This document shows positions 25,351 to 64,000 of a DNA stretch of 64,000 nucleotides, in pieces; the stretch's first letter is position 1; every line of letters starts with the position of its first letter. Origin of the DNA: an uncultured Acidobacteriota bacterium (GTDB taxonomy: Bacteria > Acidobacteriota > Thermoanaerobaculia > UBA5066 > Gp7-AA6). Both the position numbers and the translations under genes were made by a program. The stretch lies in NCBI GenBank assembly GCA_963733815.1, contig CAVTEG010000015.1, positions 464,313-528,312 of the forward strand. The letters run 5' to 3'. The notes below the pieces were generated by a model, which worked only from the letters and a program-made list of their open reading frames with translations, was not told where the DNA came from and made no database searches.

Positions 25351-25361
25351 AAGGAGGGCGT

Positions 25362-28026: not shown

Positions 28027-28037
28027 AGGGGAACGCG

Positions 28038-29051: not shown

Positions 29052-29135
29052 TTGGTCCTTCCGGCGAGGCCATTCGTCCCGCCGGGATAAACCTCGGGGC
29101 CCGAAAGCCGTTTGAACCCGCCAGGAGTGGTTCGC

Positions 29136-31788: not shown

Positions 31789-31810
31789 ATTGGTCCTCGG
31801 AGGTCGAGGC

Positions 31811-32317
31811 ATGGACAACGTGAATGCCTCCGCCTTTTTCGACTACTGGGAGAAGGTGCGGGGCCGCACGAACCGCGTCGCCGACTGCATTCCCGAGAAC
31901 CGGCTCGAGTGGACGTGGCAACCCGGCAAGTTCACGCTGGGCGACATCCTCCGGCATCTCGCCGGCATCGAGCGCGACATGTACGCCGAGAACGCGCAGT
32001 TGAGGCCGTCGCGCTACCGCGGCCACGGCTGTGAGCTCGCCGAGGGCTTGCCGGCCGTACGCGCGTACCTCGATCGCGCGCATGCCGAGTCGATGGCGAT
32101 CTTCCGCTCCCTCTCGGACAAGGACCTCGAAACGAAGTGCGAAACGCCGGGCGGCGCGAAGATCTCGGTCAAGAAGTGGCTTCGCCTGATGGCGGAGCAC
32201 GAGATCCATCATCGGGGCCAGCTCTACATGGCCCTCGGGATCCTCGGCGTCGCCACGCCGCCGATTTACGGGTTGACGTCCGAAGAGGTGCGCGCGCGGA
32301 GCGTGCCGCCGGCCTAG
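31811..32317 (+). CDS. DinB-family (DinB_2) metal-dependent four-helix-bundle protein
   Basis: ATG 31811 lies in the frame of ORF 31790..32317. His triad context: [11 protein letters not shown] ... [12 protein letters not shown]. Confidence 0.85.
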
Positions 32318-35054: not shown

Positions 35055-35103
35055 CGCGAGCGGCCTCGACGGTCGACGAGAGGGCAGATGCTCGCGGTGC
35101 TCG

Positions 35104-36533
<1,430 letters not shown>

Positions 36534-36561
36534 GGCTCGATTGCCCCGCGGCGGGGGAGGC

Positions 36562-36969
36562 TCACCGCGGCTTGAAGTCGAGCGCCGCGGAGTTCATGCA
36601 GTAGCGCAGGCCCTCGGGAGCCGGTCCGTCGTCGAACACGTGGCCCAGGTGCGAGTCGCAGCGGCGGCACAGAACCTCGGTGCGGGACATATAGAGACTG
36701 GCGTCCTCCCGGGTCTTCACGCTCGCGCCGGCGGCAGGCATGGAGAAGCTGGGCCAGCCGGTGCCCGACTCGAACTTCGCGCGCGAGTCGAAGAGCGGAT
36801 TGCCGCACGCGGCGCACGAGTACGTGCCGTCGGCGTGATGGTTCCAGTACTTTCCGGTGAAGGCGCGTTCGGTTCCCTTTTCGCGGAGGATGCGGTACTG
36901 CTCGGGCGAAAGGGAGTCCTTCCACTCCTTCTCGGTCTTCTCGATGCGGCCGGCGGGGTCCTCGACCAC
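36562..36969 (-). CDS. msrB: peptide-methionine (R)-S-oxide reductase
   Basis: ORF 36562..36969 (GTG start). It has the SelR/MsrB motifs YSCAACGNPLF, GWPSF, CRRCDSHLGHVFDDGP and RYCMNS. Confidence 0.9.
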   Translation of the reverse strand: MVEDPAGRIEKTEKEWKDSLSPEQYRILREKGTERAFTGKYWNHHADGTYSCAACGNPLFDSRAKFESGTGWPSFSMPAAGASVKTREDASLYMSRTEVLCRRCDSHLGHVFDDGPAPEGLRYCMNSAALDFKPR

Positions 36970-36987
36970 GGGCCGAATCTACCACCG

Positions 36988-37012
36988 GAGCGTTCGGCCT
37001 TCGCGAACGCTC
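36988..37012 (-). other. perfect 9-bp stem-loop overlapping the ADOP-2 stop codon (RNA 3'-end, processing or attenuation element?)
   Basis: Plus strand gagcgttcg (36988-36996), loop gccttcg, cgaacgctc (37004-37012). It lies between the last ADOP gene and msrB. No U-tract follows. Confidence 0.35.
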
Positions 37013-39473
37013 ACTCCGACCGCAGCGCCTGGATCGGGTCCAGCCGGCTGGCGCCGCGCGCCGGGAGGTAGCTGGCGAGGAGCGCCACGGCGGTCAGGAG
37101 CGCGGCGATCCCCCCGAAGGTCAGCGGGTCGCGCGGGGAGACGTCGTAGAGAAGTGCCGACAGTGCCCCGGTCAGGAGAAACGCCCCGGCGAGGCCGATG
37201 CCGACCCCGGCCAGCGCCAGGCGCGCTCCCTGCGTCAGCAGGAGCCGCTGCACGTCGCCGGGCCGGGCGCCCAGAGCCATCCGGATCCCGATCTCGTGCC
37301 GTCGCTGCGCGACGCTGAAGGCGATGACGCCGTAGACGCCGATGGCCGAGAGCAGCGTGGCGGTCACGGCGAAGAGAAGGAGTAGATCCATGGCGAAGCG
37401 CCGCTGGCTCACGGTCTCGGCCATGGCCGCGTCCATCGAGCGCACGCCGTAGAGCGGCAACTCGGGATCGGCCGCGTGGACTTCCCGGGCGATGGCGGAT
37501 CCCAGCGCCGCCGGTGCGCCCGAACCGCGGACCAGCAGCGTCATGCTGAGGCTGGCGGCCTGGAGCATCGGCCGGTAGAGCGTAGGACGATCCGTGGTGT
37601 CGAGCGCCTCCGTCTTGACGTCGCGCACGACTCCCACGATCGGCATCCAGGGTCCGAAGCCGTTGCGGCCGGGCTGGCGGATCCTTCGGCCCACCGCGTC
37701 CTCGCCCGGGAAGAATTGCCGCGCGAAGGACTGGCTGACGATCACCACGGGCGCCGCCTGCTCGTCGTCCGCGTCCGTGAACAGCCGGCCCTGGACCAGG
37801 GGGATTCCGAGAGCGCGGAAGTATTCGGTCGAGACGCGGTTCAATTCGGCTCCGCCGGCGCCTCCGCGATCCGGATCGCGTCCCTCGATCTGAAACGCGA
37901 GATCGGCCCGGCTTCGGCCGAAGGGCACGCGCGTCGCGGCGGCGGCGTGTTCGACGCCCGGGATCGCGGCGACGCGATCGAGGATCCTCCGGAAGAGAAC
38001 CACCTGGGCCTCGTTCTTGAAGTATCGACCGTCCTCGGGAATGTTGGGCTGCGGCAGCCAGAGGCTGGCGGTCGTGACGCCGTTGGGATCGAAGCCGGGG
38101 TCGACCCGCTGCAGCCGCCAGAGTGTGCGCACCAGAAGGCCCGCGGCCACCAGGAGCACGAGCGCGAGCGCGAACTCGGCGACCACCAGGACCGAGCGCA
38201 GCCGGCGCCCTCGCCGCCCGGTCGAGCCTCGGGCGCTGTCCTGAAGCGACTCGGAGAGCGCGGGGGTCGAGGCCTGGAGCGCCGGAAGCGTTCCGAAGAG
38301 AAGCCCCGTGACGATCGACGCCCCGAGGGCGAAGAGGAGGACCCGAGTATCGGGCCCCGCTTCGGCCAGCCCTGGAATGTTCGTCGGGGACATGCGGACC
38401 AGGATCTGCACCCCCCAGGAAGACAGTGCCAGGCCCAGCGCCCCGCCGACGAGCGAGAGGACCAGGCTCTCGGTCAGAAGCTGACGCACCAGCCGGAATC
38501 GGCGGGCGCCCATCGCCTGACGGATGGCAATCTCCTTGCGGCGGACCGATGCCCGGGCGAGCAGCAGGTTGGCCACGTTGGCGCATGCGATGAGCAGAAC
38601 GAAGCCGACCGCCGCCATCAGAACCATCAACGCCGGGCGAACGTTGCCGACGAGATCGGTCTGCAGCGGGATCACGCGGGCCCGCCACTCGTCTCGCGGC
38701 GGATAACTGTCGGGATACTGGCGCCGCAGCTCTTCGGTGAAGACGTCGAGCTTCTTCTGCGCGATCTCGGGAGTGAGCCCCGGCGCCAGGCGCGCCAGGC
38801 CCCCCTGCAGGAAGTAGGCGCCGCGGTTTTGTCCGCGGAACGGAGACGTCAGCCATCCGGCCGGCGCCCAGATCTCCACGTCTGTCTCGATGCTCTGGCC
38901 GGGATGGCGGAACCCCGGAGGAGCCACTCCGGCGATCGTGTACACGTCGTCGTCGAGGCGCAGCGTCTTGCCCACGACGTGGGGATCGGCCCCGTAGTGA
39001 CGGCGCCACCAGCCGTCGCTGATCACGGCGATCTCGGCGATGCCGGTCCGATAGTCCGACGCGTCGAAGAACCGGCCGACCTCGGGCTTGACCCCCAGCA
39101 TCGAGAAGTACCCCGTGTCCACCAGCAGGACCTCGGCGCGCTCCGGACGGTCGCCGCCGGTGATGTTGGCGTTGATCGGGTAGAGGCCGGAGATCGCCTG
39201 GAAGATCCCGGAGCGGTCGCGGTAGTCGAAGAGCTCCGGCGCCGAGAGGCCGACGTCCGACAGCGACTGTCCTTTCAAGTCCCCGGTGACGCGCACGAGC
39301 TCTTCGGGGTGCGGAAAGGGCAGAGGCTTGAGCAGAACGGCGTTGACCACCGAAAAGATGGCCGCGTTGGCGCCGATGCCGAGCGCGAGCGTGGCGACGG
39401 CGATGGCCGTGAAGCCGGGACTGCGCGCCAGCATTCGGACGGCGTAGCGGATGTCCTGCGAGAGTGTGGTCAC
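37011..39473 (-). CDS. ADOP-family permease, copy 2 (duplicated FtsX/MacB-type, intact)
   Basis: ORF 37011..39473, GTG start. N-term [42 protein letters not shown]. FtsX modules [31 protein letters not shown] and [24 protein letters not shown]-term LDPIQALRSE. Confidence 0.9.
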   Translation of the reverse strand: MTTLSQDIRYAVRMLARSPGFTAIAVATLALGIGANAAIFSVVNAVLLKPLPFPHPEELVRVTGDLKGQSLSDVGLSAPELFDYRDRSGIFQAISGLYPINANITGGDRPERAEVLLVDTGYFSMLGVKPEVGRFFDASDYRTGIAEIAVISDGWWRRHYGADPHVVGKTLRLDDDVYTIAGVAPPGFRHPGQSIETDVEIWAPAGWLTSPFRGQNRGAYFLQGGLARLAPGLTPEIAQKKLDVFTEELRRQYPDSYPPRDEWRARVIPLQTDLVGNVRPALMVLMAAVGFVLLIACANVANLLLARASVRRKEIAIRQAMGARRFRLVRQLLTESLVLSLVGGALGLALSSWGVQILVRMSPTNIPGLAEAGPDTRVLLFALGASIVTGLLFGTLPALQASTPALSESLQDSARGSTGRRGRRLRSVLVVAEFALALVLLVAAGLLVRTLWRLQRVDPGFDPNGVTTASLWLPQPNIPEDGRYFKNEAQVVLFRRILDRVAAIPGVEHAAAATRVPFGRSRADLAFQIEGRDPDRGGAGGAELNRVSTEYFRALGIPLVQGRLFTDADDEQAAPVVIVSQSFARQFFPGEDAVGRRIRQPGRNGFGPWMPIVGVVRDVKTEALDTTDRPTLYRPMLQAASLSMTLLVRGSGAPAALGSAIAREVHAADPELPLYGVRSMDAAMAETVSQRRFAMDLLLLFAVTATLLSAIGVYGVIAFSVAQRRHEIGIRMALGARPGDVQRLLLTQGARLALAGVGIGLAGAFLLTGALSALLYDVSPRDPLTFGGIAALLTAVALLASYLPARGASRLDPIQALRSE

Positions 39474-39489
39474 GATGGCCTCCTCGTCA
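39355..39489. repeat. junction repeat A (5' end of ADOP-2 + spacer + stop of ADOP-3), about 93% identical to 41700-41843
   Basis: Hand alignment of aagatggccgcgttggcgccgatgcc...cattcggacggcgtagcggatgtcctgcgagagtgtggtcacgatggcctcctcgtcattcg with the 41.7 kb copy gives about 9 substitutions and 1 indel over about 135 nt. Confidence 0.7.
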
Positions 39490-41818
39490 TTCGGTGCGTA
39501 GGGCTGGATCGGATCGTTCGCGCGCGCGCGCGCGGGTGAGGCTCGCGGCGACGGCGACGGCCAGGATGAGCGCGATGCCGCGGACAGGGCCAGCGGATCC
39601 TGCGGCCGGACTCGGAAGAGCTGGCTCTCGAGGAGCGGGCCGAGCAGAAGCGAGCGAAGACTCCCAGCGCGATGCGGCGGCCGTCAGGGAGAGCGCGCGG
39701 GCTGAGATGAGCCCGCGCGATCGTGAATCGGTCGGCGCCGAGCGCGATGCGGATTCGATCTCCCGCGTCGGTCGCCGACGAGCGCCGAGACGACGCCGAA
39801 GATCCGATCGCGGTCAAAACGGTCGCCAGGGCCGCGAAGACCGAGAGAAGGCCGGCGAGGAAGCGGCGGCCGGCGGCGGACGCCGCGATAATCGGGGCAT
39901 CGTCGCGACTTTCATGACGGGCTGGTTCGGATCGACCGAGGCGATCGCGGCCCGCGTGGCGGAGGCGAGCGACGCGGATCGGCGGCCCGCACGACGAGCA
40001 CATTCCCGCGTCCACCACTGGGCGCGGGGCAGGTAGATCTGAGGCGTGGGAGGGCGTCGAGGCCGTCGTGTCGAACGTGCCGGCGACGCCGACGACGGTG
40101 CGCAGGGGCCGTCGTTTCCCCGACGCGCACGCGCTTGCCGATCGGGTCTCATCGGCGCAGATCGTCGCGCGAGAGTCTCGTTGACGAGGACGACGGGCGC
40201 GCCTCCGGTCGTCGGCGGCCGTGAACGCGGCCCTCCGCACGGGAATTCCATCGTGGCCATGTAGTCGGGGCTGACGGCGTAGCGGTCGGCGTAGGGTCGC
40301 TCCGGATTGACGTTCGGCCGGTCTCGGCATGGACGCGTAGCGTCGCGGTTTCCTCCAGCGGCAGCTGGCTGACGAGCCGGCGCGTGACGCCGGCAGCGCG
40401 CGACGCGCTCGAGGACGCGATCGTAGAAGGCGCGCACGCCTCGTCTTCTCGTAGGCGTCGCCGAAACGTCGATCTCTATCGTCAGCAGGCCTTCGGCGCG
40501 AAACCGGATCGACGTTCAGAAGACGCGCGGTGCTCGGACCAGCAGCATCGCGCGCAGAGCAGCATGAGGGCGAGGCCGACATCGAACACGACGAGGGCGC
40601 CGAAACTCGCCGCGATTGGCGACCTCGCGGTTACCCCCGACGCCCGCGCAGGACGGGTTCGGGATCGAGGCGCGCGAGCGCAGGGCCGGGACGATTCGAA
40701 CAGCAGGCCGTCAGGAGGGAGGCGCGAGCGTGTAGACGAGGACGCCTCGTCGAGCTGCACGGACGCGATTCGCGGCAGGTTGCGGCGGCGAGCAGAGTGG
40801 CTGGAGCAGTCAGGCTCGCGCGAGAAGCCAGGGAGCCTCCGGCGAGTGCGATGACGAGGGCCTCGACGAGACAGAGCGGGCGATGCGCGCGCGCGAGGCG
40901 CGAGGGCCGTCGGACGGCGATCTCTTGCGCGGCGCGTGGCGCGGGAGAGCAGGAGGCTTCGACGTTGGCGCAGCGATGAGAAGGACGAGGCTGACGCGCG
41001 AGCAGCGTGCAGGGCGGCCGCGTGGCGGTGAGCGCTTGGGAACGAAGTACGAGGGAGCAGCGGGCGCGCGTAGGAAGAGGGATGCTCGGACGAGCCTCTG
41101 CGAGAGGGCGTTATGTGGCGCGCGCTGCGCGAGCGAGACGCGGGCCTAGGGCGACGAACGCGAAGGTGGGCAATCGCGGCAGGCCTGGGGGAGGGTGTGT
41201 TGTAGCAGAGCGGCGCGAAGATCTCGGCGGGTGCGCGAGATGAAGAGAACACGGACTCGAAGTGGGAGGGCGAGACGCGGGCACGAGGTAGGACGTGTCG
41301 AGGCGGATCGTTTTCACGGCAGCGAGGGGTCGGCGCGAATCGGCAGCGCAGAGCTGTCGATAGGAGGACGAGTACGAACCGATTGTCGCGGAGAGCCTCC
41401 GACGCAAGGAAGTTCGCCGAGAGCCGGGCGCGCTTGAGAAGGCGGAAGAACCTGTCGCTGACGCGGATCTCTTCGATCCGCTCAGCGGGGACTCCGGCCT
41501 CCGCCGAGAGCTTGGGCGCTCAGTACGAGACGACGGCGATATCCTCGAAGGAGCGGTTTATCTCCCGCTAGTCGACGTAGGTCGCATAGCCGGTGTTGTC
41601 CGGGTTCTGGTTCTGATCGCGCTTTCTTGAGCGTTTTCACTAGGGCTCTGAGGCTGTTGGAATGGGAGAGGCCGCAGTTAGGATTTCGCGGACGACCGAG
41701 AAGATGGCCGTGTTGGCGCCGATGCCCAGGCGAGCGTGGCGACGGCGATGGCGGCGAAACCGGGACTGCGCACCAGCATTCGGACGGCGTAGCGGATGTC
41801 CTGCGAGAGAGTGGTCAC
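39487..41818 (-). pseudogene. ADOP-family permease, copy 3, decayed (nonsense codons and many frameshifts)
   Basis: GTG 41818 starts [29 protein letters not shown]. In-frame TAG (41568-41570) sits where paralogs have Trp (YVD*REINRSFEDIAVVSY*), and TGA lies at 41520-41522. Middle and C-terminal pieces (LVLLIA.ANV, EIAVR, FGALVVFDVGLALMLL, SPDYMATMEF, VVLVNETLARR, PQIYLPRAQ, RRFLAGLLSVFAALATVLTAIG, IRIALGA) are spread over three frames. The C-term DPIQ(A)LRTE-TGA at 39487 needs one inserted base. Confidence 0.75.
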
Positions 41819-41843
41819 GACGGCCTCCTGGTCATCCCGGTCA
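41700..41843. repeat. junction repeat B (5' end of ADOP-3 + spacer + stop of ADOP-4), with a 9-nt tandem duplication
   Basis: This is the counterpart of 39355-39489. The spacer carries ggtcatccc/ggtcattcg (41830-41847), a near-duplicate absent from copy A. Confidence 0.7.
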
Positions 41844-44347
41844 TTCGCTGCGTAACGCTTCCAAGGGATCCAGCCGCGCCGCTCGCCGGGCGGGCGGATA
41901 CGCCGCGAGCAGTGCCACGACGACCATCAAGAGGACTCCGGCCGCGAAGACGGCGACGTCCGCGGCCTTGACGCCGAACAGGATGGACTCCACGACGCGC
42001 GCCAGCACGTAGGCGGCGGGCAGCCCGATCAGGCCGCCGACCGCGAGAAACCGGACGACCTCGCCCAGCACGAGGCGCCGCACGGTCTGCGGATCCGCGC
42101 CCAGAGCGATCCGGACTCCGATCTCGCGCCGCCTCTGCTCGACTGCGAAGGAGAGCACGCCGTAGATCCCGATCGCGGCGAGCAGCGCCGCCAGCGCTCC
42201 GAACGCCGCCGAGAGGAAGAGCATCAACCGATCCGTGAGAAGCGATTCGGAGAGCTGCGCCGTCATGGTCTTGAGGCTGTCGATCGGAAGCTCGGGGTCC
42301 AGGCGCTTGACCTCGGCGCGCAGGGCCGGCGCCAGATTTCCAGGATCGCGGTCGGTCCGCAGGTAGAACGTCAGCTCGCCGAGCTTTTCGAACTGGAGGT
42401 ACGGCAGGTACGCGAAGGGAACGTCCGGCTCGGAGACCTGGGAGTTCTTGATCGAGCGGACGATGCCGACGATCTCGATGTCGGGATGGACGTCGGCCCC
42501 TCCGCCCAGCCCGAACCGGGCGCCCAGGGCGTTGCGTCCCGGGAAGAGCTTCCGAGCCATCGTGTCGTTGATGACGGCGACCTTGGCGCCGAGGCGTCGT
42601 CCTTCCAGGAAATGTCCCGGCCGGCCAGAATTGGGACGCCGAGGGTCGCGAAGTAGTCCGGACCCACGCGGTTGCGGCGGACGCGGCCGGAATCGAAATC
42701 GTGCGGCGCGCCTTCGATCGTCACATTGCCGCCGTTGTCGCTGTTGGTGAAGCTGCCGAGCTGAGCCGCCGTGACCGACCGGACGCCGGGCAGCGTCTTC
42801 AGGTTCTCCGTCAGGCGGCGGGCGAGGTCCGCAGTGCGCTCGGCCGAGTAGCCGTTCAACTTCGGCGCGATCGTGAAGCCGATTACGTTCTCGGGCCGCA
42901 CGCCCAGATCGACGCGCGCCAGGTTCGCCAGGCTTCGGGCGAACAGTCCCGCCGCGACGAGCAGGACTAGCGTCAGCGCGACCTGCGCCGTGACCAGCCA
43001 GGCTCGAAACCGGAGGGCCTCGCGCCCCGGGGACACCGTACCGCGGCCCTGACCCGCGAGCGTGCGCGCCGGATCCAGCCGGGCCGCCCTGTATGCCGGC
43101 CCCACGCCGAAGAGGATTCCTGCGGCAAGCGATAGAAGACCCGCGAAGAAGACGACGCGTGGATCGATCTGGGCAGCGATCAGCCGCATGTCCGCGTCGG
43201 CCGGGAACGCCGAGAGCAGTCCATGCAGGATCCAGGCGGCGACGACGACTCCGAGGACACCACCGGCGATCGTGAAGAGGAGGCACTCCACCACGGACTG
43301 TTGCAGCAAGTGGCGGCGCGTGGCGCCGATCGCCAGCCGGATCCCGTACTCGCGCTGGCGTGCCGCTCCCCGGGCCGCGAGCAGGCCCGCCAGGTTCGAG
43401 CACGCGATCAAAAGAACGAGACCGACCATCCCCATCAGGGACACGAGCGGCTTGCCGATGCCGTCCTGGAGGACGCGGCGGCCGTGCGAACCCGGGACGA
43501 GCAGGATCCGCCGCGCCAGGAACTCTTTCTTCGTGTTCTCGTTCCAGCCCTCGATCCTCGGCAGGAGCTCCTCGAGAAGCGGCCGGTAGGTCGGCACGAG
43601 GGCTCGCTCCGCTTCCGAGCGCGAGCGGCCCGGCTTGAGCCTGCCGACGATCTGAATCCAGTAGTCCTTGGGGTCTTCGAGGCCGTTCCAGAACGGCGTC
43701 ATCTGCGGCTTCATCATCATCGGCACGAAGAGGTCCGCGGGGCGCCCGGCCTGGATCCCGGCAAACGACGGCGGCGTCACCCCGACGATCGTGAAGGGAT
43801 GACCGTTCAAGACGATCGTCTGGTCGAGAATCGAGCGGTCCGAGCCGAAGTGGCGCGCCCAGTAGCCGTGGGACAGCACCGCAACGGGATGCGCGCCGGG
43901 CGTTCGGTCGTCTTCGGGGCCGAGGACGCGTCCCAGGGACGGCGGAACCCCGAGCACGCCGAAGTAGTTGCCCGTGACGAGCTCGCCCCGAGCCAGCTCC
44001 GTCGAGCCGCGCGCAGCCACACTCGCGTCGAACGGCTGCTCGCCCACCAATCCGGCGAACACAGTCGCGCGGTCCCTCAGGTCCCGGTACATCGGATACG
44101 AGAAGCACGCCGTGTCGTCTCCGTCGCTCGACGTGTGGCCCTGCCGAGGCCCGGGGGAGCGCAGCAGGACCAGCTCTTCGGGATTGCGGACCGGCAGCTC
44201 GCGGATCAGGACGCGGTCCACCAGGGCGAAGATCGCGGCGTTGGCCCCGATGCCGAGCGCGAGCGTGGCGATCGCCGCGGCCGCGAAGGCCGGGCTGCGC
44301 CGCAGAGTCCGGAACGCGTAGCGCAGGTCCTGAAGCAGAGGGCTCAT
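41841..44347 (-). pseudogene. ADOP-family permease, copy 4, single 1-nt frameshift near 42586-42590
   Basis: The N-terminal 585 or so codons lie in ORF 42371..44347 ([43 protein letters not shown] ... GVPILAGRDISWKDDASAP). The continuation KVAVINDTMARKLFPG... to RLDPLEALRSE lies in ORF 41841..44108. Confidence 0.8.
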
Positions 44348-44360
44348 CGCGGATCCTTTC

Positions 44361-46796
44361 TCATTCGCTGCGGAGCGCGGTCATGGGATCCACCTTCGCG
44401 GCGCGGCGCGCGGGCACATAGGACGCCAGCGCCGCCGCTCCGGCGAGGACGGCGACGACCGCCGTAAACGTCGCCGGGTCCCGCGGTCCGACTCCGTGCA
44501 GCGTGGAGGCGAGGACGCGCGAGGCCGCCATGGCCGCGACAATGCCCGCGGAGAGGCCGAGGACGATCGGGATGAAGCTCTGCCGGACCGTCAGCCGCAC
44601 GATGTCGCGGGCCGTAGCACCCAGGGCCATGCGCACGCCGAACTCGGGAGTGCGCTGGGCGACGAAGTAGGAGATCACGCCATAGATTCCGACCCAGGCC
44701 AGCAGCAGACCGATCGCTCCGAGCGCCGAGAGAAGCATCGTGTTGAACCGATCCTCCGCGAGCGAGCTGCTCCGGCGCTCGTCCATCGACGTGACGTCGT
44801 AGAGCGGAACCCCGGGCGCCGCCTCGCGGGCCGCCGACCGGATCGCCCCGGCCAGCGCGGCGGTGTCGCCTCCCGCCGACCGGACCGCGATCGCCATCGT
44901 GCGCTGGACCCAGTCCCAGGCTTCGGCGGGAGACTGGGCGAGCGGAAGGTAGAACTCCGGATAAAGCTCGACGCCGAGGCCGCGCGAGCGGACGTCTCCG
45001 GCGATCCCGATCACGGTCTTCCACATGGGATCGGCTTCGGATCCCTCGCAGCACGCCACGCGCTTGCCGATGGGATCCTGTCCGGGCCAGAGCCGGCGGG
45101 CGAGCTCCTGGCTGACGATCATGACCCGCGGAGCGCCGCGCACGTCCCTGGCACCGAAGCCGCGCCCGCGCACCAGCGGGATCCGCATGACTTTCAAATA
45201 GTCCGGCGTGATCATGCGGAGTCGCGCGTCCACGGCCTTCGAAACGTCGATCGTGGCGGCTTCGGCGATCAGGCCGTTCGAGTTGCCGCCGGGTCCGAGC
45301 GGAAGCTGTGAGGTCACCGCGGCAGCCTGCACGCCCGGGGATCGCTCGAGCGCGGCGACCATCCGCTCCCACGTCCGGTTGACGGTTTCGTCGTCGGCGT
45401 ACGCGCGAGCCGGCAGCGACATCCGCGCCGTCAGCACGCCGCGGGGCTCGAAGCCCGGCGCCACGCGCTGCAGGTGGATCGCCGTACGGATCAGAAGGCC
45501 CGCACCGACGAGGAGCAAGAGGGCCAGGGCGATCTGCCCGGCGACGAGCGCCATGCGGAGACGGTCGTGGCCGCCGGAGAGGCCCGGCGTACGGCCGCCT
45601 TCCCGGAGCGCGGCCTGGAGATCGCGCCGCGTGGCGCGGACGAGCGGCATCATGCCGAAGACGAGACTGCTGACGAGCGAGATCCCGACCGCGAAGAGCA
45701 GGGCGGCGGCGTCCAGGTTTGCCTGCTCGATTCGGGGAACTCCCGGCGGGCTCGCGGCGATGAGCGTTCCCACGGCGCCGACCGCGAGGACGACACCCAG
45801 GGCTCCGCCGGAGAGACCCAGGACGACGCTCTCGGTGAAGAGCTGCCGCGCGATGCGGCCCCGCGAAGCGCCGAGCGCCGCCCGCGTCGACAGCTCGCGG
45901 GCCCGGCCCGCGCCCCGCGCCAGCAGCATGTTCGAGACGTTGCTGCACGCGATCAGCAGGACCAGCCCGACCGCGCCGAAGAGGATCCAGAGACGCTCCC
46001 GGTAGTTCTCGACCAGGAGGTCCTTGAAAGGCTGGATCCGGAAGCCACGCTCGGCGTTGTGCAGGGGGAAGCGGCGTTCGAGATCGCGCGAAATGGTCAG
46101 GGCGTCCTGGTTGGCTTCAGCGACCGAGACGCCGGGTTTGAGGAGCCCGTAGATCGTGAGGCTGTGCTTGTCATGGTTGGCGAGCGTCTCGGAATCGAAC
46201 GCCGCCGGAACCCACAGCTCCTCGTTGTCGCGCGTGTAGTCGAAGGAGGCCGGCATCACGCCGACGACGGTGTAGGGCTCTCCGTCGAGGCGCAGGGTGC
46301 GGCCCACCACGTCGGTCGCGCCTCCGAGCCGCGACTTCCACATGCGGTCGCTGACGACGACGACGTGGCCGGCTCCGGGCCGATCTTCCTCGGGCCGGAA
46401 GCCCCGACCCCGCTGCGGCCTCACTCCGAAAACGTCGAAGTAGTCCTCCGTCACTCGCGCTCCGTCCACCCTCTCCGGCGTGACGCTCTCGGCGAGGTTG
46501 AACGTCGCGTAGCGGACCGCGGCAAGCTTGTCGAAGCTGCGGCTCGCGGCCTTCAGGTCCGCGAAGTTGCCGGCGGAGACACCCCCACGTCGGCCCCTCC
46601 ACGTCTCCATTACCGCGACCACACGGTCCGCATGGGCAAACGGCAGCGGGTTCAGCAGGACCGCGTGCACGAGGCTGAAGATCGCCGTGTTGGCGCCGAT
46701 GCCCACGGCGAGCGTCACGACCGCGAGAGCGGCGAACCCGGGGCTGCGGGACAGCGTCCGGATCGCGTACCGAAAGTCCTGCAGGATCGTGCTCAT
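44361..46796 (-). CDS. ADOP-family permease, copy 5 (intact)
   Basis: ORF 44361..46796: [43 protein letters not shown] ... LLIACSNVSNMLLARGAGRARELSTRAALGA ... [23 protein letters not shown] ... [10 protein letters not shown]. Confidence 0.9.
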   Translation of the reverse strand: MSTILQDFRYAIRTLSRSPGFAALAVVTLAVGIGANTAIFSLVHAVLLNPLPFAHADRVVAVMETWRGRRGGVSAGNFADLKAASRSFDKLAAVRYATFNLAESVTPERVDGARVTEDYFDVFGVRPQRGRGFRPEEDRPGAGHVVVVSDRMWKSRLGGATDVVGRTLRLDGEPYTVVGVMPASFDYTRDNEELWVPAAFDSETLANHDKHSLTIYGLLKPGVSVAEANQDALTISRDLERRFPLHNAERGFRIQPFKDLLVENYRERLWILFGAVGLVLLIACSNVSNMLLARGAGRARELSTRAALGASRGRIARQLFTESVVLGLSGGALGVVLAVGAVGTLIAASPPGVPRIEQANLDAAALLFAVGISLVSSLVFGMMPLVRATRRDLQAALREGGRTPGLSGGHDRLRMALVAGQIALALLLLVGAGLLIRTAIHLQRVAPGFEPRGVLTARMSLPARAYADDETVNRTWERMVAALERSPGVQAAAVTSQLPLGPGGNSNGLIAEAATIDVSKAVDARLRMITPDYLKVMRIPLVRGRGFGARDVRGAPRVMIVSQELARRLWPGQDPIGKRVACCEGSEADPMWKTVIGIAGDVRSRGLGVELYPEFYLPLAQSPAEAWDWVQRTMAIAVRSAGGDTAALAGAIRSAAREAAPGVPLYDVTSMDERRSSSLAEDRFNTMLLSALGAIGLLLAWVGIYGVISYFVAQRTPEFGVRMALGATARDIVRLTVRQSFIPIVLGLSAGIVAAMAASRVLASTLHGVGPRDPATFTAVVAVLAGAAALASYVPARRAAKVDPMTALRSE

Positions 46797-46810
46797 GGTT
46801 CCTCCGCTGG

Positions 46811-49276: not shown

Positions 49277-49959
49277 CGCGCGGCCACGCTGGGGGCTTCG
49301 CCCTCGATCCAGCCGTCACGCAGGCGCACGATCCGATTTCCGTAGGTGGCGTTCTCTTCCGAGTGCGTGACCTGAATGATCGTCGTGCCTTCGTCGTTGA
49401 GCCTCTTGAAGAGGCGCATGATCTCGCGCCCCTGATCCGAGTGGAGGTTTCCGGTCGGCTCGTCGGCGAGAAGCAGCGCCGGTTTCGCGATGAGCGCGCG
49501 CGCCACGCCCACGAGCTGCTGCTGCCCGCCCGAGAGCTGGTTGGGGAAGAGGTCCTTCTTGCCGACGATCTGAAAGCGGTCGAGCGTGTCGGCCACGATC
49601 GCCGCGCGCTCGGAGCCTTTGACGTTGCGGTACGAGAGCGGGATGTCCAGGTTCTCGGCGACGGTGAGGTTGTCGAGCAGGTGGTACTGCTGGAACACGA
49701 ACCCGATGTGTTTCTTGTTGAGCTCGATGCGATCCTTCGGCTTCATGCGCTGGACATCGTTGTCGAGGAGGCGGTACTCCCCGCGCCAGTCGTGGTCGAG
49801 CATGCCGAGGATCGCGAGCAGCGTGGACTTGCCGGCGCCCGACGGGCCCATGATCGTGACGAACTCTCCCTTCGCGATCGACAGGTCGATGCGGCGCAGG
49901 ACGAACGTTTCGCCGGCGCGTGTCTGGAAGGATTTCTCGAGGTTGGAGAGTTGGATCAT
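49273..49959 (-). CDS. ABC transporter ATP-binding protein (MacB/LolD-type NBD)
   Basis: ORF 49273..49959 (228 aa). Walker [11 protein letters not shown]-loop FQQ, signature LSGGQQQ, Walker [10 protein letters not shown]-loop VTHS. Confidence 0.92.
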
Positions 49960-49966
49960 TGTGGAT

Positions 49967-52417: not shown

Positions 52418-52421
52418 GGCG

Positions 52422-54848
52422 TCATTCCGACCGGAGAACGGTGGCGGGATCGACGGCCATGGCTCGCCGCGCCGGTCGCGCGCACGCGAGGGCCACGACG
52501 CCGGTGACGACGAAAGCGACGCCGCCGAAGGTGAGCGGATCCGTCGGGCCGACGCCGAAGAGGAGGCTCGACAGGAAGCGCGTCAGGCCCACGGCGGCGA
52601 CGGCGCCGATCACGATTCCGATGGCGGCGAGCCTGAGCGAGTGGTGGAAGACGAGGCGGAGGACGTCCCCGCGTTTGGCGCCGAGCGCCGTCCGGATGCC
52701 GATCTCGCGCGTCCGCTGCGCCACACCGTAAGAGACGACGCCGTATATGCCGACCGCGGCGAGGAGGAGCGCCAGGGCGCCGAACGCGCCGAGGAGAAGC
52801 GTGTGAAAGCGCCTGCGAGCCAGCGACTCGGCGATGTACTGGGTCATCGGCTGCACGGCGGTCACGGCCTGGTCCTTGTCGAGCGCGTGGATCGCCCCGA
52901 TCACCGGCTTCGCCATGCTCATCGGCGACCGGCCCGTCCGGACGAGCAGCGTCAGGGCGGGCTCGGGATCCTGGGCCATCGGCAGGAAGACCTCGGTTCG
53001 GATTTCGGCGTCGAGTCCGGACTGGGGAACGTCGCCGACCACGCCGACGATCTCGCGGAACGGGGCGTCGTTCTGGGGAAATCCCTGCTTGATCCGCTTG
53101 CCGAGGGGACTTTCGTTCGGCCACCACTTGCGGGCCATCTTCTCGTTGATCACGACGACCGGGGGCGAGGTGGGCGTGTCGGTCGCGTCGAAGAAACGAC
53201 CTTTCTTGAGCGGCACGCGCATCGTCTGAAAGTAGGACGACTCGACCATGTTGAAGGGGCTGGTCGGCAGCTCCGACTGCCTCGGAACGGGCCGATCCGA
53301 GACGAGGTAAACGGAGCCCCAGCACTGGCCGACGACCGGCGTGCACATGCTGGCGCTGGCGCTCTCGACGCCCGGGAGGTGGCGGATCTCCTCGAGACCC
53401 CTCTCGTAGAAGCGACGCTGCTCCTCGTCGGTCTTGTACGTTGCCTCCGGAAGGTAGACGTCGAGCGCGAGGACGCCGTCAGTCTCCAGACCGGGAGACA
53501 CACCCTCGACCCGGCGGAGGCTGCGGAGCAAAAGTCCCGAGGCCACGGCCAGAACGAACGCGAGGGCGACCTCCGAGACGAACAGCGCGGAACGGAGGCG
53601 CTGGCGCGCGGTTCCCCCCGTCGCGGTGTTGCCGGACTCGCGAAGAGTCGTCTGGGGATCGCTTCGAGATGCCTGTGCAGCGGGAGCGAGGCCGAAGATG
53701 AGGCCGGTCAAAGTCGACGCGGCGAGGGTGAATAGGAGCACGGCCGTATCGATCCTCGTGTCCGCGAGGCGCGGGATCTCGGGAGGCGCCAGACGCAGCA
53801 GCGGCCCGAGCGCCCAGGCCGCGAGCACGACACCGAGAGCGCCCCCGATCGCGGAAAGCAACAGGCTTTCGGTCAGGAGCTGCCGAACGATCCGGGCCCG
53901 ACCGGCGCCGATGGCCGTGCGGATCGCGAACTCCCGGCGCCGCGCCGACGCCCGGGCCAGCAGCAAGTGCGCGATGTTGGCGCAGGCAATCAGAAGCACC
54001 ACGCCCACGGCCGCGAGCAGGATCCAGAGGGCCGCCCGGAAGTCTCGGAACATGGCATCGTCCAGGAAAGCGATCGTGGCCCGCTGGCCGCTGTTGGACT
54101 GGGGATACTCCTTCTCGAGCTGGAGCATGATGGTTTCCATCTCGCGCCCCGCTCCCTCAAGGGACGCTGCGGGCGCGAGCCTCGCAAGCACGCGCATCGC
54201 CGAGTGGTTGCCCCGATCCAGCCAACCCCGCCGGCTGCCCATCAGGCCAACCGGGGTGTAGATGTCGACGGCGTCCGCGAAGAACGCGAACGAACGCGGG
54301 AGCACGCCCACGATCGTGTGGGGAGTTGCGTCGAGTTGGACGGCGCGGCCCACGACCGAAGGGTCGCCGCCGAAGCGCCGCTTCCACACTCCGTGAGACA
54401 GCAGCGCGACGGGCGAAGCCCCCGGTCGGTCGTCGGCTTCGTCGAACGCACGACCCAGCGCGGGGGAGACCCCGAGGAGCGGAAAGAACGGAGCGGACAC
54501 CTGTGCGGATCGAAGCATCTCCGGCGCGCCGGCGCCGCTGAGCATCAGGTGATCGGTCCGGAAGCCGGCCATGCCCTGGAAGGACCGCGCTTGCGTCCGC
54601 CAGTCCAGGAACGTCGGCCATGCCACGCCCATCTCGCCGCCGTGGTGGATATGCCGCTCGCGCATCACGACAAGCCGGTCGGGCTCGGGGTACGGGAGGC
54701 GGCGAAGAAGGACGGCGTGCACGACCGAGAAGATCGCGGTGTTGGCTCCGATGCCCAGCGCCAGGGTCGCCACGGCGATTGCGGTAAAGCCGGGCGTGCG
54801 CACCAGGGTGCGAAGGGCGTAGCGAAGATCCTGCATCAGTGTGGACAT
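52422..54848 (-). CDS. ADOP-family permease, copy 8 (intact)
   Basis: ORF 52422..54848: [43 protein letters not shown] ... LLIACANIAHLLLARASARRREFAIRTAIGA ... YGVVSYGVAQRTREIGIRTALGA ... VDPATVLRSE. Confidence 0.9.
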   Translation of the reverse strand: MSTLMQDLRYALRTLVRTPGFTAIAVATLALGIGANTAIFSVVHAVLLRRLPYPEPDRLVVMRERHIHHGGEMGVAWPTFLDWRTQARSFQGMAGFRTDHLMLSGAGAPEMLRSAQVSAPFFPLLGVSPALGRAFDEADDRPGASPVALLSHGVWKRRFGGDPSVVGRAVQLDATPHTIVGVLPRSFAFFADAVDIYTPVGLMGSRRGWLDRGNHSAMRVLARLAPAASLEGAGREMETIMLQLEKEYPQSNSGQRATIAFLDDAMFRDFRAALWILLAAVGVVLLIACANIAHLLLARASARRREFAIRTAIGAGRARIVRQLLTESLLLSAIGGALGVVLAAWALGPLLRLAPPEIPRLADTRIDTAVLLFTLAASTLTGLIFGLAPAAQASRSDPQTTLRESGNTATGGTARQRLRSALFVSEVALAFVLAVASGLLLRSLRRVEGVSPGLETDGVLALDVYLPEATYKTDEEQRRFYERGLEEIRHLPGVESASASMCTPVVGQCWGSVYLVSDRPVPRQSELPTSPFNMVESSYFQTMRVPLKKGRFFDATDTPTSPPVVVINEKMARKWWPNESPLGKRIKQGFPQNDAPFREIVGVVGDVPQSGLDAEIRTEVFLPMAQDPEPALTLLVRTGRSPMSMAKPVIGAIHALDKDQAVTAVQPMTQYIAESLARRRFHTLLLGAFGALALLLAAVGIYGVVSYGVAQRTREIGIRTALGAKRGDVLRLVFHHSLRLAAIGIVIGAVAAVGLTRFLSSLLFGVGPTDPLTFGGVAFVVTGVVALACARPARRAMAVDPATVLRSE

Positions 54849-54852
54849 GGAA

Positions 54853-57411: not shown

Positions 57412-57415
57412 CTTC

Positions 57416-59806: not shown

Positions 59807-59814
59807 GGTTCCTC

Positions 59815-62214
59815 CTATTCCGACCTCAGGGCGGTGAGGGGATCGACGCCCGCCGCCCGACGGGCCGGCAGGTACGCGGCGGCCACGGCCACCGCGAGCA
59901 GCAGCGCCGCGGCGCCGGAAAGAATCCAGGGGTCCGTGGCGCTGACCTCGAACAGAAGCGCCCGCATCAGACGTGTCGCGGCCATCGCTCCGGCAAGACC
60001 GATGAGAACGCCGAGCACAGTCATTCGGACGGCGCGCCGCAGCACCGCGGCCATCACGTCCCGTCCCCGCGCGCCGAGGGCCATCCGAATCGCGATCTCG
60101 CGCACGCGTTCGCTGACGGAATACGCCATGACGCCGCCCACACCCACGGCCGCCAACGCCAGAGCCAGCGCGGCGAACGCCCCGAGCAGGCGGACGATCA
60201 GGCGCCGGCCGCCGGCCGACTCGTCGAGGATCTCGTCCATCGCGCGCACGCCCCAGACGGCGACCGACGGATCCATCGCCCGGACGGTCCGGCGCACGCT
60301 GGCCGCCATGGCGGATGCCGGAACGCGCGTGCGCACGAGGAGGCTCGTGTAAGACATCGGCAGCTGCGATTGCGGGACGTACATCTGTGGAGAAGCCGGT
60401 GCATCGAGGGCGCGCTCGTGCACGTCGCCGACCACGCCGACGATCTCGAAGGACGGCGGGCAGTTTGCGGAGTCGCGGCAGAACCCGATCCGGAGATGGC
60501 GTCCGATCGGGTCTTCACCCGGAAAGTAGTCGCGCGCGAAGGCCTCGTTCACAACGACGGACAGCGGCGCTCCGCTGCGGTCGCTCTCGGAAAGGTATCG
60601 TCCCGACTTCCGCGGTATCCGCAGGGCCTCGAAGTAGCCGGGATCGACCCATCGCATCTCGGCCGAGTACTCGTCGCCACGCGGCATCGGACGGCCTTCG
60701 ACCGTGAACCCGTTTCCGAAGCTGTCATTGGTGACCGGGAGATGGCTGATGAAGGTCGCCGACTCCACGCCCGGGAGCGCCTCCGTCTGAGCGCGAACCC
60801 GCTCGAAAAACCGGGTCCACTGGTCGGGCTCGGGGTACTGGGCGGTGGGGAGGTTCAGGTTCATCGCGAGGAGATTCCGGCTGTCGAATCCGGGAGCGAC
60901 TTCGGACAGCTTCGCGAGGCTGCGGAGCAGCAGGCCCGCGCCGGTCAGCAGCATCAGGCAGAGCGCCACTTCCGCCGCGACGAAGGCCGCCGTCGTCCGG
61001 TGCGCGCCGGCCGTTCGGCCTCCGGCTCCCCGAAGGACGCCCTCGACCTCTCGTCGGGTGGCCTGCCAGGCCGGCGCGAGCCCGAAGACCACGCTCGCGG
61101 CCGCGGCGAGGGCCAGAGAAAACGCGAGGACGGCTGGTTCGATGCCGCCGGGGGAGCGGGGAAGGACTCGGGATATCGGACCCGAAAGCGCATCGACGAT
61201 CCAGACCGCGCCAAGAACGCCGAGCACCGCTCCGCCCAGGGCGAGAACCAGGCTCTCTGTCAGGAGCTGACGGATCAGCCGACGCCGGCCGGCTCCCAGT
61301 GCGATGCGCACGGCGATCTCGCGGTGCCGGCGGTTGGCGCGCGCCAGCAGCAGGTTCCCGACGTTCGCGCAGGCGATCAGCAGGACGAACCCGGCGGCAG
61401 CGGCCAGCAGGAGAAGCATCGGACGTGACTCGCCGACGATCTCCGGCGCAAGCGGCAGCACTTCGGCCCGCCAGCCCTTGTTGAAGTCTGGATACGCCTG
61501 GTCGAGGTAGCGGCTGATGGCGTCCATCTCGGCGCGCGCGGCGGTGAGCGTCGCATCCAGCCGGATGCGCGCGACGACCGAGAGCCACTTGGATCCGCGG
61601 CTCTGCAGATCCTGCGCCGTCAGAGCCAGCGGCGCCCAGATGTCGGATCGACGCAGCGGAGGGAACTCGAGGTCGGCCGGGAGAATGCCGACGACCGAGT
61701 GAGGCGCGCCGTTGATCTGGATCGAGCGTCCGACCACCGACGGGTCGGCGGCGAAACGGGAGCGCCAGTATCGATCCGAGAGCAGCACGACGCGGTCCCG
61801 GCCGGGCTCTCCCTCTTCGAGAGAGAAACCTCGCCCGGCAGCGGTGCGGATGCCCAGAAGCGGAAGCAGGCTCGGGGAAACGAAAGCCACGCGGACGCGT
61901 TCGGCATCCTCCACGGAACGCAGATTCACGCCCGCGGCGCTGTAGGCGGACATGACCTCGAGCGTGCGCGCGCGGCGCCTCCAGTCCTCGAAGTTGGCCG
62001 GCGAGACGCCCGTGTGCCACTCGCCCTTGGTCTGTCCGAGGGTCACGAGCCTCTCCGGCTCGGCGACGTGGAGCGGCCGCAGAAGGACCGCGTGGACGAC
62101 CGAGAACATGGCCGTGTTGGCGCCGATGCCGAGCGCGAGCGTCAGCAGCGCCGCGATGGTGAAGCCGGGCGAGCGCGCGAGTCCGCGCAGCGCGTAACGC
62201 AGGTCCGGGATCAT
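59815..62214 (-). CDS. ADOP-family permease, copy 11 (intact)
   Basis: ATG 62214 ([40 protein letters not shown]) lies within the 1392-aa ORF 59815..63993. Residues upstream of this Met are an out-of-frame read of ADOP-12. C-term [10 protein letters not shown]. The start overlaps the ADOP-12 stop (ATGA). Confidence 0.88.
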
Positions 62215-64000
62215 TCCGACCTCAGGGCGGTCATCGGGTCGATGCGCGACGCGCGGCGCGCCGGAAGGTACGCGGCGAGGAACGCGCAGCCCGCGAGCAG
62301 AACCGTGGCCGCCGCGAACGTGACGGGATCCTCCGGTCCGACGCCGTAGAGCGCGCCGGCGATCAGACGCGCGGCGAGCGCCGCCAGCGCGATCCCGGCC
62401 GCAAGGCCGCCGGCAAGCGGGGCAGCCGTCTGCCGGAGAACGAGCGCGCGCACGTCGGCGGCCTGCGCGCCCAGCGCCATCCGAATGCCGACCTCGCGCG
62501 TCTGACGCCGCGCGGACCAGGACACGACCGCGTAGATTCCGAACGCGGCGAGGATGAGCGACAGCACGCCGAAGAGACCCAGCAGCGCCGCGCCCGCACG
62601 CTGGGGAAGAAGCTGCGCCGCGACGACGTCGCCGTACGGGCGGAGGCCGGAGACGGGGAGCGTGCCGTCGAGCCTCCGGATCTCGCCGCGGATGAGCTTC
62701 GCCGCGGCCGCGGGACCTGCGTCCGTCCGGACGACGAGCGTGAGTCCCGACGACGCCACGTCGCCGAGCTGCTCGATCGGAGCGAAGGCCTGGGGCTCGG
62801 CCGGATCGGACAAGGACCCGAACCGATAGTCGCGCACGACGCCGACCACCGTGCGCGGCACGTCGATGGTGAGCCGGCGGCCGATCGGGCTCGAGCCCGG
62901 AAAGTAGCGTCGGGCCATCGCCTCGTTGACCACTGCGACCGGGAGGGCGCCGGCCCGGTCGGCGGCCTCGAAGTCGCGGCCGGCGGCCATCGGGACGCCG
63001 AGTGCGCGGAAGTAACCCGGCGACACGCCGCTCGCCACCACGACGGGCCGCTTGCCGTCCGGCGGGACGTAGCCTTCGGCCTCGAACGTCTCGACCGAGC
63101 GTTCTCCGGAAAGAGGTAGGGTCGTCGTCCAGCCCGCGGCCTCGACGCCGGTCTTGGACGCGAGACGGTCGGCAAGCTCTTCCGCGAACGTCGCGGCGCG
63201 GGCGGCGTCGTACCGTTGCAGTCCCAGGTTGACGTCGGCGAGGGTCACATTGTCCGGCCGAAGACCGAGATCGATGGCCAGGGCGTTGGCGAGGCTTCTC
63301 GCCAGAAGGCCGGCGGTCGCCAGCAGCGCGAGGCAGAGCGCGAGTTGCGCCCCTACCAGGACTCCCTTCGCGCGCGAGCGAGGGACGAGCGTCGGCGCGG
63401 AGAGCTTCAGCGAGGAGGAGATCGCGATGCGCGAAGCCTGGAGCGCGGGAAGCAGGCCGAACGCGATCCCGGTCGCGGCCGAGAGGCCGAATGCGAAGAC
63501 GAGAGTGCGCAGACCCAGCTCCGGCCGGAAGAGCGACAGAGTCAGATCGCCCCCCAGCGGCACGCGGGTCAACACGGAGAGTCCCCAGCTCGCGACGAGG
63601 AGGCCCGCGGCGCCGCCGGCGAGGGCAAGAACGACGCTCTCGGTGAGGACCTCCCGCATCAGGCGGCCGCGGCCCGCGCCGAGGGCCTGACGGATCGCGA
63701 TCTCCCGGTCCCGGGCCGCGGCCCGCGCGAGCAGGAGATTGGCGAGGTTCGCGCACGCGATCAGCAGCGCCGCGGCGACCGCGCCGGCGAGAAGGCCGAA
63801 GAGCCGGGCCGGAGAGATGTCCTGTCCCATTCCCGCGGCAACGCGCGCGGAGGGCACGACGCTCCAGGTCGGCGCGTCGAACGTCTCGCCGTGCGCCGAC
63901 GCGTCTCGGCGCAGAAGCGTCACGAGGGAGGCTTGGGCCTGGGCGATCGTGACGCCCGGATCGCGGCGTCCCGTGACGCGCAACCAGCCCCAATTGCGCG
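62211..64000 (-). CDS. ADOP-family permease, copy 12, 5' end off-window
   Basis: ORF 62211..63983, with the frame open to the window edge. FtsX modules [31 protein letters not shown] and [24 protein letters not shown]-term [10 protein letters not shown]. Confidence 0.88.

Follow-up and report, generated by a model that had tools for sequence, protein, structure and literature searches.

We analyzed a 64,000-nt stretch of the genome of an uncultured Acidobacteriota bacterium (assembly GCA_963733815.1, contig CAVTEG010000015.1, positions 464,313–528,312), hereafter the window, and in particular its row of genes encoding ADOPs (acidobacterial duplicated orphan permeases). The G+C content of the window was ~70%. 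Eleven consecutive ADOP-type units, designated A1–A11, lay in head-to-tail order on the minus strand, starting at position 37011 and reaching the right edge. An earlier, sequence-only reading of this DNA, made without database searches, had described eleven minus-strand ADOP genes reaching the right edge in a row composed purely of permease genes. Eleven units were indeed found; however, eight of them were intact and complete, while A11 was cut by the window edge, A3 carried a single frameshift, and A2, with ~90 single-base insertions or deletions (indels), had no open frame. Moreover, a gene encoding an ABC (ATP-binding cassette) ATPase, ATP2 (49273–49959), sits between A5 and A6.

The permease array and its embedded ATPase

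The genes of the array are listed below from the window edge leftwards, with scores for TIGR03434, the NCBIfam model of ADOP.

62211–64000, minus strand: A11, ADOP permease, C-terminal 595 aa, N-terminus past the window edge; 603 bits, model positions 211–803
59815–62214, minus strand: A10, ADOP permease, 799 aa, intact, start MIPDLRYAL; 941 bits
57416–59806, minus strand: A9, ADOP permease, 796 aa, intact; 876 bits
54853–57411, minus strand: A8, ADOP permease, 852 aa, GTG start, intact; 878 bits
52422–54848, minus strand: A7, ADOP permease, 808 aa, intact, the copy used for modelling; 1001 bits
49967–52417, minus strand: A6, ADOP permease, 816 aa, intact; 833 bits
49273–49959, minus strand: ATP2, ABC ATPase, 228 aa, between A5 and A6; PF00005, 110 bits
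46811–49276, minus strand: A5, ADOP permease, 821 aa, intact; 864 bits
44361–46796, minus strand: A4, ADOP permease, 811 aa, intact; 934 bits
41841–44347, minus strand: A3, ADOP permease, frameshifted once near 42585; tblastn and hidden Markov model (HMM) matches split over two frames
39470–41818, minus strand: A2, ADOP permease unit with ~90 single-base indels; frameshift-aware alignment
37011–39473, minus strand: A1, ADOP permease, 820 aa, GTG start, final copy of the array; 970 bits

The eight intact and complete copies scored 833–1001 bits with TIGR03434, the cutoff of which is 622.3. Each copy contained two MacB_PCD (PF12704) and two FtsX (PF02687) Pfam domains, i.e., the internal duplication characteristic of the family; two FtsX modules per copy had also been read from the letters alone. 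By sequence, the array copies are members of the ADOP family, in agreement with the first assignment, and both the structural model and the fold matches given below support it. An acidobacterial lineage with large paralogous families, another trait of ADOPs, also applies here: the nearest relatives of ATP2 and of the ADOPs were found in Acidobacteriota (see below), and the window has 12 copies within 64 kb.

Spacers between the array genes calculated from the coordinates ranged from -4 to +22 nt, exactly as first reported; the stop of A11 and the start of A10 overlap by 4 nt. The C-terminal motif DP..(A/V)LR(S/T)E was present in 10 of the 11 copies. The sequence-only reading had singled out one copy lacking the N-terminal motif and ten with this C-terminal ending, and A6 proved to be deviant at both termini. 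A scan of positions 34900–54800 for sigma-70 promoters and terminators revealed nothing exceeding the expectation from shuffled sequence.

The ATP2 gene starts 7 nt past A6 and overlaps the start of A5 by 4 nt. In its product, the Walker A, Q-loop, LSGGQ, Walker B, and H-loop motifs are all of canonical form. DarD, MacB, FtsE, and LolD were its best NCBIfam matches, all of them under the equivalog cutoffs, and 5xu1_A and the nucleotide-binding domain of MacB were the best matches in PDB. As judged from its sequence, ATP2 is an ABC ATPase of the MacB/LolD/FtsE/DarD type. The 'orphan' trait of ADOPs, i.e., the lack of a fused or adjacent ABC ATPase gene, is therefore absent from this array, and a view of this locus as an orphan battery without a partner is mistaken. 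Since 'orphan' is a descriptive attribute and not a sequence criterion, ADOP membership stands, the name being misleading for this locus. Another candidate link between the two protein types was rejected: an 883-aa protein, P0046, annotated with FtsX and ABC_tran domains, turned out to be an A7-like ADOP read through into ATP2 owing to a frameshift and is thus no natural ADOP–ATPase fusion.

The structure of A7 was modelled with AlphaFold2 from 71 aligned sequences (pLDDT 85.6, pTM 0.77). The model has eight transmembrane (TM) helices, two periplasmic domains, an N-terminal amphipathic helix, and a short C-terminal helix. The first half consists of TM1 (residues 19–48), a periplasmic domain of ~210 residues (49–261), TM2 (262–302), a coupling helix (304–312), TM3 (317–352), and TM4 (368–395); a cytoplasmic linker of ~17 residues (396–412) leads to the second half (413–797), the coupling helix of which lies at residues 713–721. 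An ATPase domain is absent from the chain. As modelled, A7 has the four-TM unit of type VII (MacB-type) ABC systems, in which TM1 and TM2 flank a periplasmic domain and TM2 is joined to TM3 via a cytoplasmic coupling helix. The top Foldseek match in PDB was YbbP (9ge6_A, E-value 1.8e-21, full length), and MacB, Spr0695, LolE/LolC, BceB, HrtB, and YtrF were further fold matches; MacB and Spr0695 were also recovered by sequence searches. Fold and sequence matches together indicate that an ADOP is a type VII ABC membrane domain, formed by the direct fusion of two MacB-type units.

Conservation was distributed unevenly along the chain. The mean pairwise identity of the window paralogs was 0.29–0.31 in the periplasmic domains versus 0.47–0.67 in the TM and cytoplasmic parts, and the divergence of the periplasmic regions, initially perceived by eye, is borne out by these values. 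When conservation among the paralogs was related to that in the A7 orthogroup, the ratios were 0.89–0.99 for the N- and C-terminal motifs and 0.57 for the periplasmic domains. Two cysteines lie in the second periplasmic domain of A7 (MCTPVVGQCWGS; window positions ~53320–53345). Cys502 was conserved in more than 90% of the sequences in the alignment, A7 orthologs for the most part, and Cys509 was kept in the alignment consensus; the two residues may form a disulfide peculiar to the A7 head.

The cassette in related loci and the proposed pump

A search of species-representative genomes with ATP2 returned 586 relatives, and the best 80 loci (68–92% identity; numbered with the prefix L) were analyzed. 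Flanks of 10 kb on each side of ATP2 were annotated, and comparison of array sizes is censored accordingly. The loci originated from Acidobacteriota, Gemmatimonadota, Myxococcota, and one Limnocylindrales, Thermoanaerobaculia being the closest; metagenome-assembled genomes (MAGs) of Thermoanaerobaculia and other Acidobacteriota contained the nearest relatives of both ATP2 and the ADOPs.

In total, the comparison took in 92 related loci, in which ATP2 marks a conserved cassette. A common gene order emerged from them: a TolC-like gene, a gene for an HlyD-type adaptor (membrane fusion protein, MFP), a second ABC ATPase gene (ATP1), (ADOP)n, ATP2, (ADOP)m, in some cases a methionine sulfoxide reductase gene (msrB), a gene for an NtrC-type sigma-54-dependent regulator, and a histidine kinase gene. 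The order MFP–ATP1–(ADOP)n–ATP2–(ADOP)m–NtrC recurred in four phyla, cassette-linked ADOPs being encoded also in the loci of Gemmatimonadota, Myxococcota, and Limnocylindrales. Co-directional ADOP genes adjoined ATP2 in 56 of the 80 loci, and in four (L001, L002, L004, and L007) they filled both 10-kb flanks. The number of ADOPs per side varied from 0 to at least 8. The adaptor gene was found in 37 of the 80 loci and also in L081–L084; the TolC-like gene (OEP) was identified in L009 and L075. When metagenomes were scanned with A11, locus L082 was recovered, where a run of at least 8 ADOPs comes after the adaptor and ATP1; the fourth ADOP of this run is the A11 ortholog. The array of the window, with at least 6 ADOPs upstream and 5 downstream of ATP2, was the largest example among the loci compared.

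ATP1 of the relatives is a protein of ~262 aa with canonical motifs. It forms an orthogroup distinct from that of ATP2, with 46% identity between the two. Within-group identity was 71–77% for each of the ATPases even across phyla, and ~47–53% for the adaptor; judging by these sequences, the constraint on ATP1 and ATP2 fits proteins obliged to suit many partners. Among the cassette ADOPs (n = 122), mean pairwise identity was highest in the two coupling helices, with 0.62 and 0.71, in TM1, with 0.62, and in the C-terminal helix, with 0.61, compared with 0.31 in the periplasmic domains.

These data make it rather likely, in our judgment, that the array encodes the permeases of a conserved MacAB-TolC-like (type VII ABC) envelope pump, in which ADOPs act as interchangeable heads on a shared engine. 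The suggestion that the array copies are MacB-like mechanotransmission modules, made when the DNA was first read, has gained support from ATP2 within the array and from the adaptor, the TolC-like protein, and ATP1 in the relatives. In the mechanism we propose, any ADOP present would be engaged by the ATPases via its conserved coupling helices. By mechanotransmission, the stalk helices would pass the effect of ATP binding and hydrolysis on to the periplasmic domains, and a substrate taken from the periplasm or the outer leaflet would be expelled via the adaptor and the outer-membrane duct. Eleven or more heads would thereby offer differing periplasmic specificity with one shared engine, and the same engine might power scattered ADOPs, such as the PadR-linked copy at 25587–28020. 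An ATP1–ATP2 heterodimer may match the two non-identical permease halves; we regard this detail as possible, and it is put forward with reserve.

Gene neighbourhood could also be incidental. ADOPs would then be truly orphan and would function on their own, draw on the proton-motive force, or use unrelated ATPases; the cassette would serve another, unrecognised membrane partner, and the site would simply tolerate the pile-up of ADOPs arising from tandem duplication. Consistent with this explanation, about half of the cassettes have no ADOP between the ATPases: ATP1 and ATP2 were adjacent, without a permease in between, in 24 of the 51 cassettes with both ATPases visible. Gene order was fluid among the relatives, and no ATPase gene was found near the solitary PadR-linked copy. 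Against it, ADOPs were the only permease type encountered within any of the 80 loci, and in four phyla they are co-directional and tightly packed precisely between ATP1, ATP2, and the regulator; the conservation of their coupling helices is on a par with that of the highly conserved ATPases. An ATPase pair with an adaptor and a duct is unworkable without a membrane domain, and no other one is encoded nearby; in cassettes devoid of permeases the partner must thus be encoded elsewhere. We consider incidental adjacency unlikely.

Seven loci (L009, L029, L046, L049, L058, L063, and L075) contained genes for the TolC-like protein, adaptor, ATP1, ATP2, regulator, and kinase and not a single permease gene. 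In long loci such as L009, L049, and L075, we failed to find an FtsX-type gene within 10 kb. An IS-type (insertion sequence) transposase gene was located between the TolC-like gene and the adaptor gene in L009.

The part of the cassette from the ADOPs to the kinase is covered by the window: A1 is followed by msrB, the regulator, and the kinase, matching the order in the relatives.

36562–36978, minus strand: msrB (SelR domain), 32 nt downstream of A1; PF01641, 179 bits
35104–36593, minus strand: NtrC-type sigma-54-dependent response regulator, frames broken; Sigma54_activat, Response_reg, and HTH_8 domains, phmmer fragments
33731–35007, minus strand: sensor histidine kinase, fragmented over frames; phmmer fragments collinear with the kinase of L009

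The position of msrB after the ADOPs is shared with L001 and L003, and a link of the cassette to oxidative stress is possible. The gene of the NtrC-type regulator was located downstream of ATP2 or of the ADOPs in 58 of the 80 loci, followed by the histidine kinase gene in L009 and L075. In the window, the regulator gene has an in-frame stop at 36079–36081; the broken frames of the regulator and the kinase are probably due to sequence error, as elsewhere in the window. Upstream of the adaptor gene, the sigma-54 motif TGGCA[CT]N6[TC]GC was found in 8 of the 31 loci, the background rate being 0.011 per 510 nt. Such a -24/-12 motif fits control by the neighbouring regulator, and regulation of the pump by sigma-54 and the two-component system is probable. 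A sigma-54-like motif within A9 (position 58513), a lone intragenic match, was taken as chance.

The same neighbours raise the question of a sensory role, in which the main task of ADOPs would be to sense, or help to sense, on behalf of the two-component system next to them, in the manner of flux sensing by BceAB-BceRS, with many ligand-specific inputs feeding one kinase. The histidine kinase and the sigma-54 response regulator are conserved 3' neighbours, and BceB is among the structural relatives of A7. At the same time, the adaptor and the TolC-like duct of the cassette point to export, and an ADOP has two MacB-type periplasmic domains in place of the single BceB-type domain. Sensing and transport can also coexist. 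A mainly sensory function appears improbable to us.

A fuller form of the shared-engine pump can be proposed only tentatively: one engine, consisting of the TolC-like duct, the HlyD-type adaptor, the ATP1–ATP2 heterodimer, and sigma-54 two-component control, would be common to dozens of ADOPs, both in the array and scattered, each with its own periplasmic specificity, and the size of the array would shift by gene birth and death.

Several points weigh against the pump as described. No gene for the adaptor, the TolC-like protein, or ATP1 is seen in the window, the array running off its edge; that they exist further upstream is extrapolated from relatives with only partly collinear gene order. 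Two loci, L015 and L031, had a single ATPase, and the heterodimer is thus not obligatory. The sigma-54 motif was present in just about a quarter of the adaptor upstream regions. The loci were gathered by ATP2 similarity, a sampling from which the share of ADOP genes or arrays lacking a cassette is not derivable. To our knowledge, the NCBIfam definition of ADOP holds that these genes essentially never adjoin ATPase genes. No function or energy source of ADOPs is known to have been established since the family was named. With a conserved partner cassette that is itself often permease-less, this 'orphan' problem becomes a testable model.

Disrupted copies and other genes of the window

The disrupted copies and repeats of the array could be explained if it were an assembly artefact, with a repeat having been collapsed or expanded, or if its genes were pseudogenes in decay, a graveyard. 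Besides A2 and A3, several further genes of the window are frameshifted, and direct repeats of ~106 nt with 93% identity (39385–39490 and 41730–41835) lie on either side of A2. These repeats comprise the ribosome-binding site and the first ~35 codons of A1 and A2. However, the window copies share merely 37–43% identity at the protein level, and apart from the 106-nt repeat, DNA repeats in the array are short and 60–88% identical; the assembly expansion about which the sequence-only reading had cautioned is thereby excluded. Nine copies have long intact frames with family scores far over the cutoff. In addition, several array copies have orthologs of 59–76% identity within the arrays of independent assemblies, short-read ones included, and their order is partly kept. 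Orthologs of A7 and A9 were found in L002, those of A3 in L001, L002, L003, and L007, and those of A11, A9, and A7 in L082; the A9 orthologs in L002 and L082 showed 76% identity. The presence of orthologs in partly the same order in independent arrays indicates that the array is old and evolves via gene gain, loss, and shuffling.

The disruptions themselves resemble errors of sequencing. In frameshift-aware alignment, A2 required ~79 single-base deletions and 11 insertions, the missing base being mostly G. Its alignment with the ortholog L002_18162 extended end to end with 65% codon identity, while intact ortholog pairs had 64–72%. The G content of the A2 coding strand was 0.287 versus ~0.345, the frequency of the GG dinucleotide was halved, and the unit was ~100 nt short. 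Indels without surplus substitutions and with G-biased deletions are the signature of a sequencing-error patch and not of decay, and from these sequence features A2 is most likely such a patch covering an intact gene. The indels and the flanking repeats suggest that this segment was poorly polished and may vary between strains; that the repeats mark a strain-variable stretch of low coverage is a matter of speculation. In A3, the addition of one G near 42585 (42575–42590; tcggcgcc to tcgggcgcc) restored the frame, ASGAKVAVINDTMAR, and resulted in an intact ADOP of the 835-aa class; its frameshift-aware alignment with L001_13133 showed 72% identity and one deletion. The closest relatives, which are long-read MAGs, were fragmented in a like manner. 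Taken together, an artefact or a graveyard is a very remote explanation of the array.

Frameshift patches were also observed in the 5' region of the PadR gene and the twelfth ADOP copy, in the regulator, in the kinase, and in a xanthine-dehydrogenase-like gene. The twelfth copy was located outside the array, on the plus strand behind a PadR gene.

25020–28020, plus strand: PadR regulator and twelfth ADOP copy (25587–28020), frameshifted; PadR and MacB_PCD Pfam domains, ADOP HMM fragments

Several frameshifts fall within the first 1.5 kb of this region. The twelfth ADOP has the long N-terminal extension typical of PadR-linked copies, and a DJ-1/PfpI domain is encoded after it (region 25020–29051). 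PadR was considered as a regulator heading the arrays and rejected: phmmer recovered PadR solely beside solitary ADOPs in L065 and never upstream of the cassette.

Two further loci of the plus strand were noted. Positions 12051–18997 encode a TamB-like protein (1316 aa) followed by an Omp85/POTRA (TamA/BamA-like) protein, a pair of outer-membrane assembly genes unrelated to the array. The long open reading frame at 29112–31823 contained fragments of Fer2 and Ald_Xan_dh_C domains alone and is probably a xanthine-dehydrogenase-type operon broken by frameshifts.

Comparison with known systems

Among characterized systems, MacAB-TolC (type VII ABC; PDB 5nik, 5lil, and 5gko; reviewed in PMC5985334) shares with ADOP the four-TM unit, in which TM1 and TM2 are separated by a large periplasmic domain and TM2 is followed by a coupling helix, and with the cassette the MacB-type ATPase as well as the HlyD-type adaptor and TolC-like protein encoded in the row of the relatives. 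In contrast, MacB is a homodimer with an N-terminally fused ATPase, while ADOP joins two different units in a single chain without an ATPase domain; in the cassette, the ATPases are encoded by two separate genes, and the number of alternative permease genes ranges from 0 to more than 11.

Over the full length, ADOP was structurally best matched by YbbP of the Escherichia coli YbbAP(-TesA) system (PDB 9ge6; PMC12646458). Like ADOP, YbbP unites two MacB-type permease units, and thus two periplasmic domains, in one protein; its ATPase, YbbA, is separate and was likewise a match of ATP2. YbbP has 10 TM helices, including two extra linking ones (PMC5985334); ADOP has eight, and the linking helices of YbbP and BceB are absent from it. 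Identity in the structure-based alignment was 14%, and the score with NF041854 was 29.7 bits at a cutoff of 999, which places ADOP outside the YbbP family. Unlike the cassette, YbbAP consists of one permease and one ATPase and lacks adaptor and duct genes.

The darobactin exporter DarBCD (NF038008, NF038010, and NF038007; PMC8442675) resembles the cassette in several components. DarD was the best NCBIfam match of both ATP1 and ATP2, and DarC was the second-best match of the cassette adaptor. The DarB model, with 777 positions, has an ADOP-like length, and the partners of DarB are an adaptor and a separate ATPase. All Dar family scores were under the cutoffs (DarD 256/375, DarC 62/450, and DarB ~20/700), and membership in DarB and DarD does not apply. 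DarBCD comprises one permease and one ATPase, and neither a precursor gene of a RiPP (a peptide made on the ribosome and modified after translation) nor a radical S-adenosylmethionine gene was found in the window.

As proposed for ADOPs, two different MacB-type units (LolC and LolE) are combined with separate ATPase subunits in LolCDE. ADOP is, in effect, a fused heterodimer of the LolC–LolE type, and both LolE and LolC were among its structural matches; the scores of the ADOP copies with the LolC/E families were far under the cutoff. LolD is a homodimer from one gene, and the Lol system has neither adaptor nor duct and a single dedicated class of substrates, unlike the cassette.

In terms of shared energising modules, group II ECF (energy-coupling factor) transporters and the MsiK-type shared ATPases of actinobacterial sugar importers combine one ATPase module with many interchangeable membrane components encoded elsewhere. 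These are importers with unrelated folds, and the ADOP cassette may be likened to them in logic only.

With regard to the number of genes, a large clustered battery is not unprecedented. On genomic island 43 of Psychroflexus torquis, a cluster of 42 kb combines ten ADOP paralogs with further transporter genes, some of them for ATP-binding proteins; the ADOP proteins are abundant, and no function was assigned to them (PMC3914696). Array size by itself is thus not new. The P. torquis cluster, which we liken by its description, belongs to Bacteroidota and lies in a genomic island with transposases, and neither a conserved cassette nor a shared-ATPase model was proposed for it. ADOPs form large paralogous families in Acidobacteriota and reach tens of copies in some other bacteria, e.g., 28 and 33 in two Dyadobacter genomes (PMC11573002). 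In the limited library of literature searched, which makes for weak evidence, no description of the two-ATPase/adaptor/duct/sigma-54 cassette or of the shared-engine model was found; the family name is spelled out in full in two papers only, and TIGR03434 is mentioned in none. If the model is true, it would account for the energy supply of the very large ADOP families in soil Acidobacteriota and Gemmatimonadota, and the cassette would represent a modular multiplication of the substrate range of a tripartite pump, an arrangement undescribed for type VII ABC systems.

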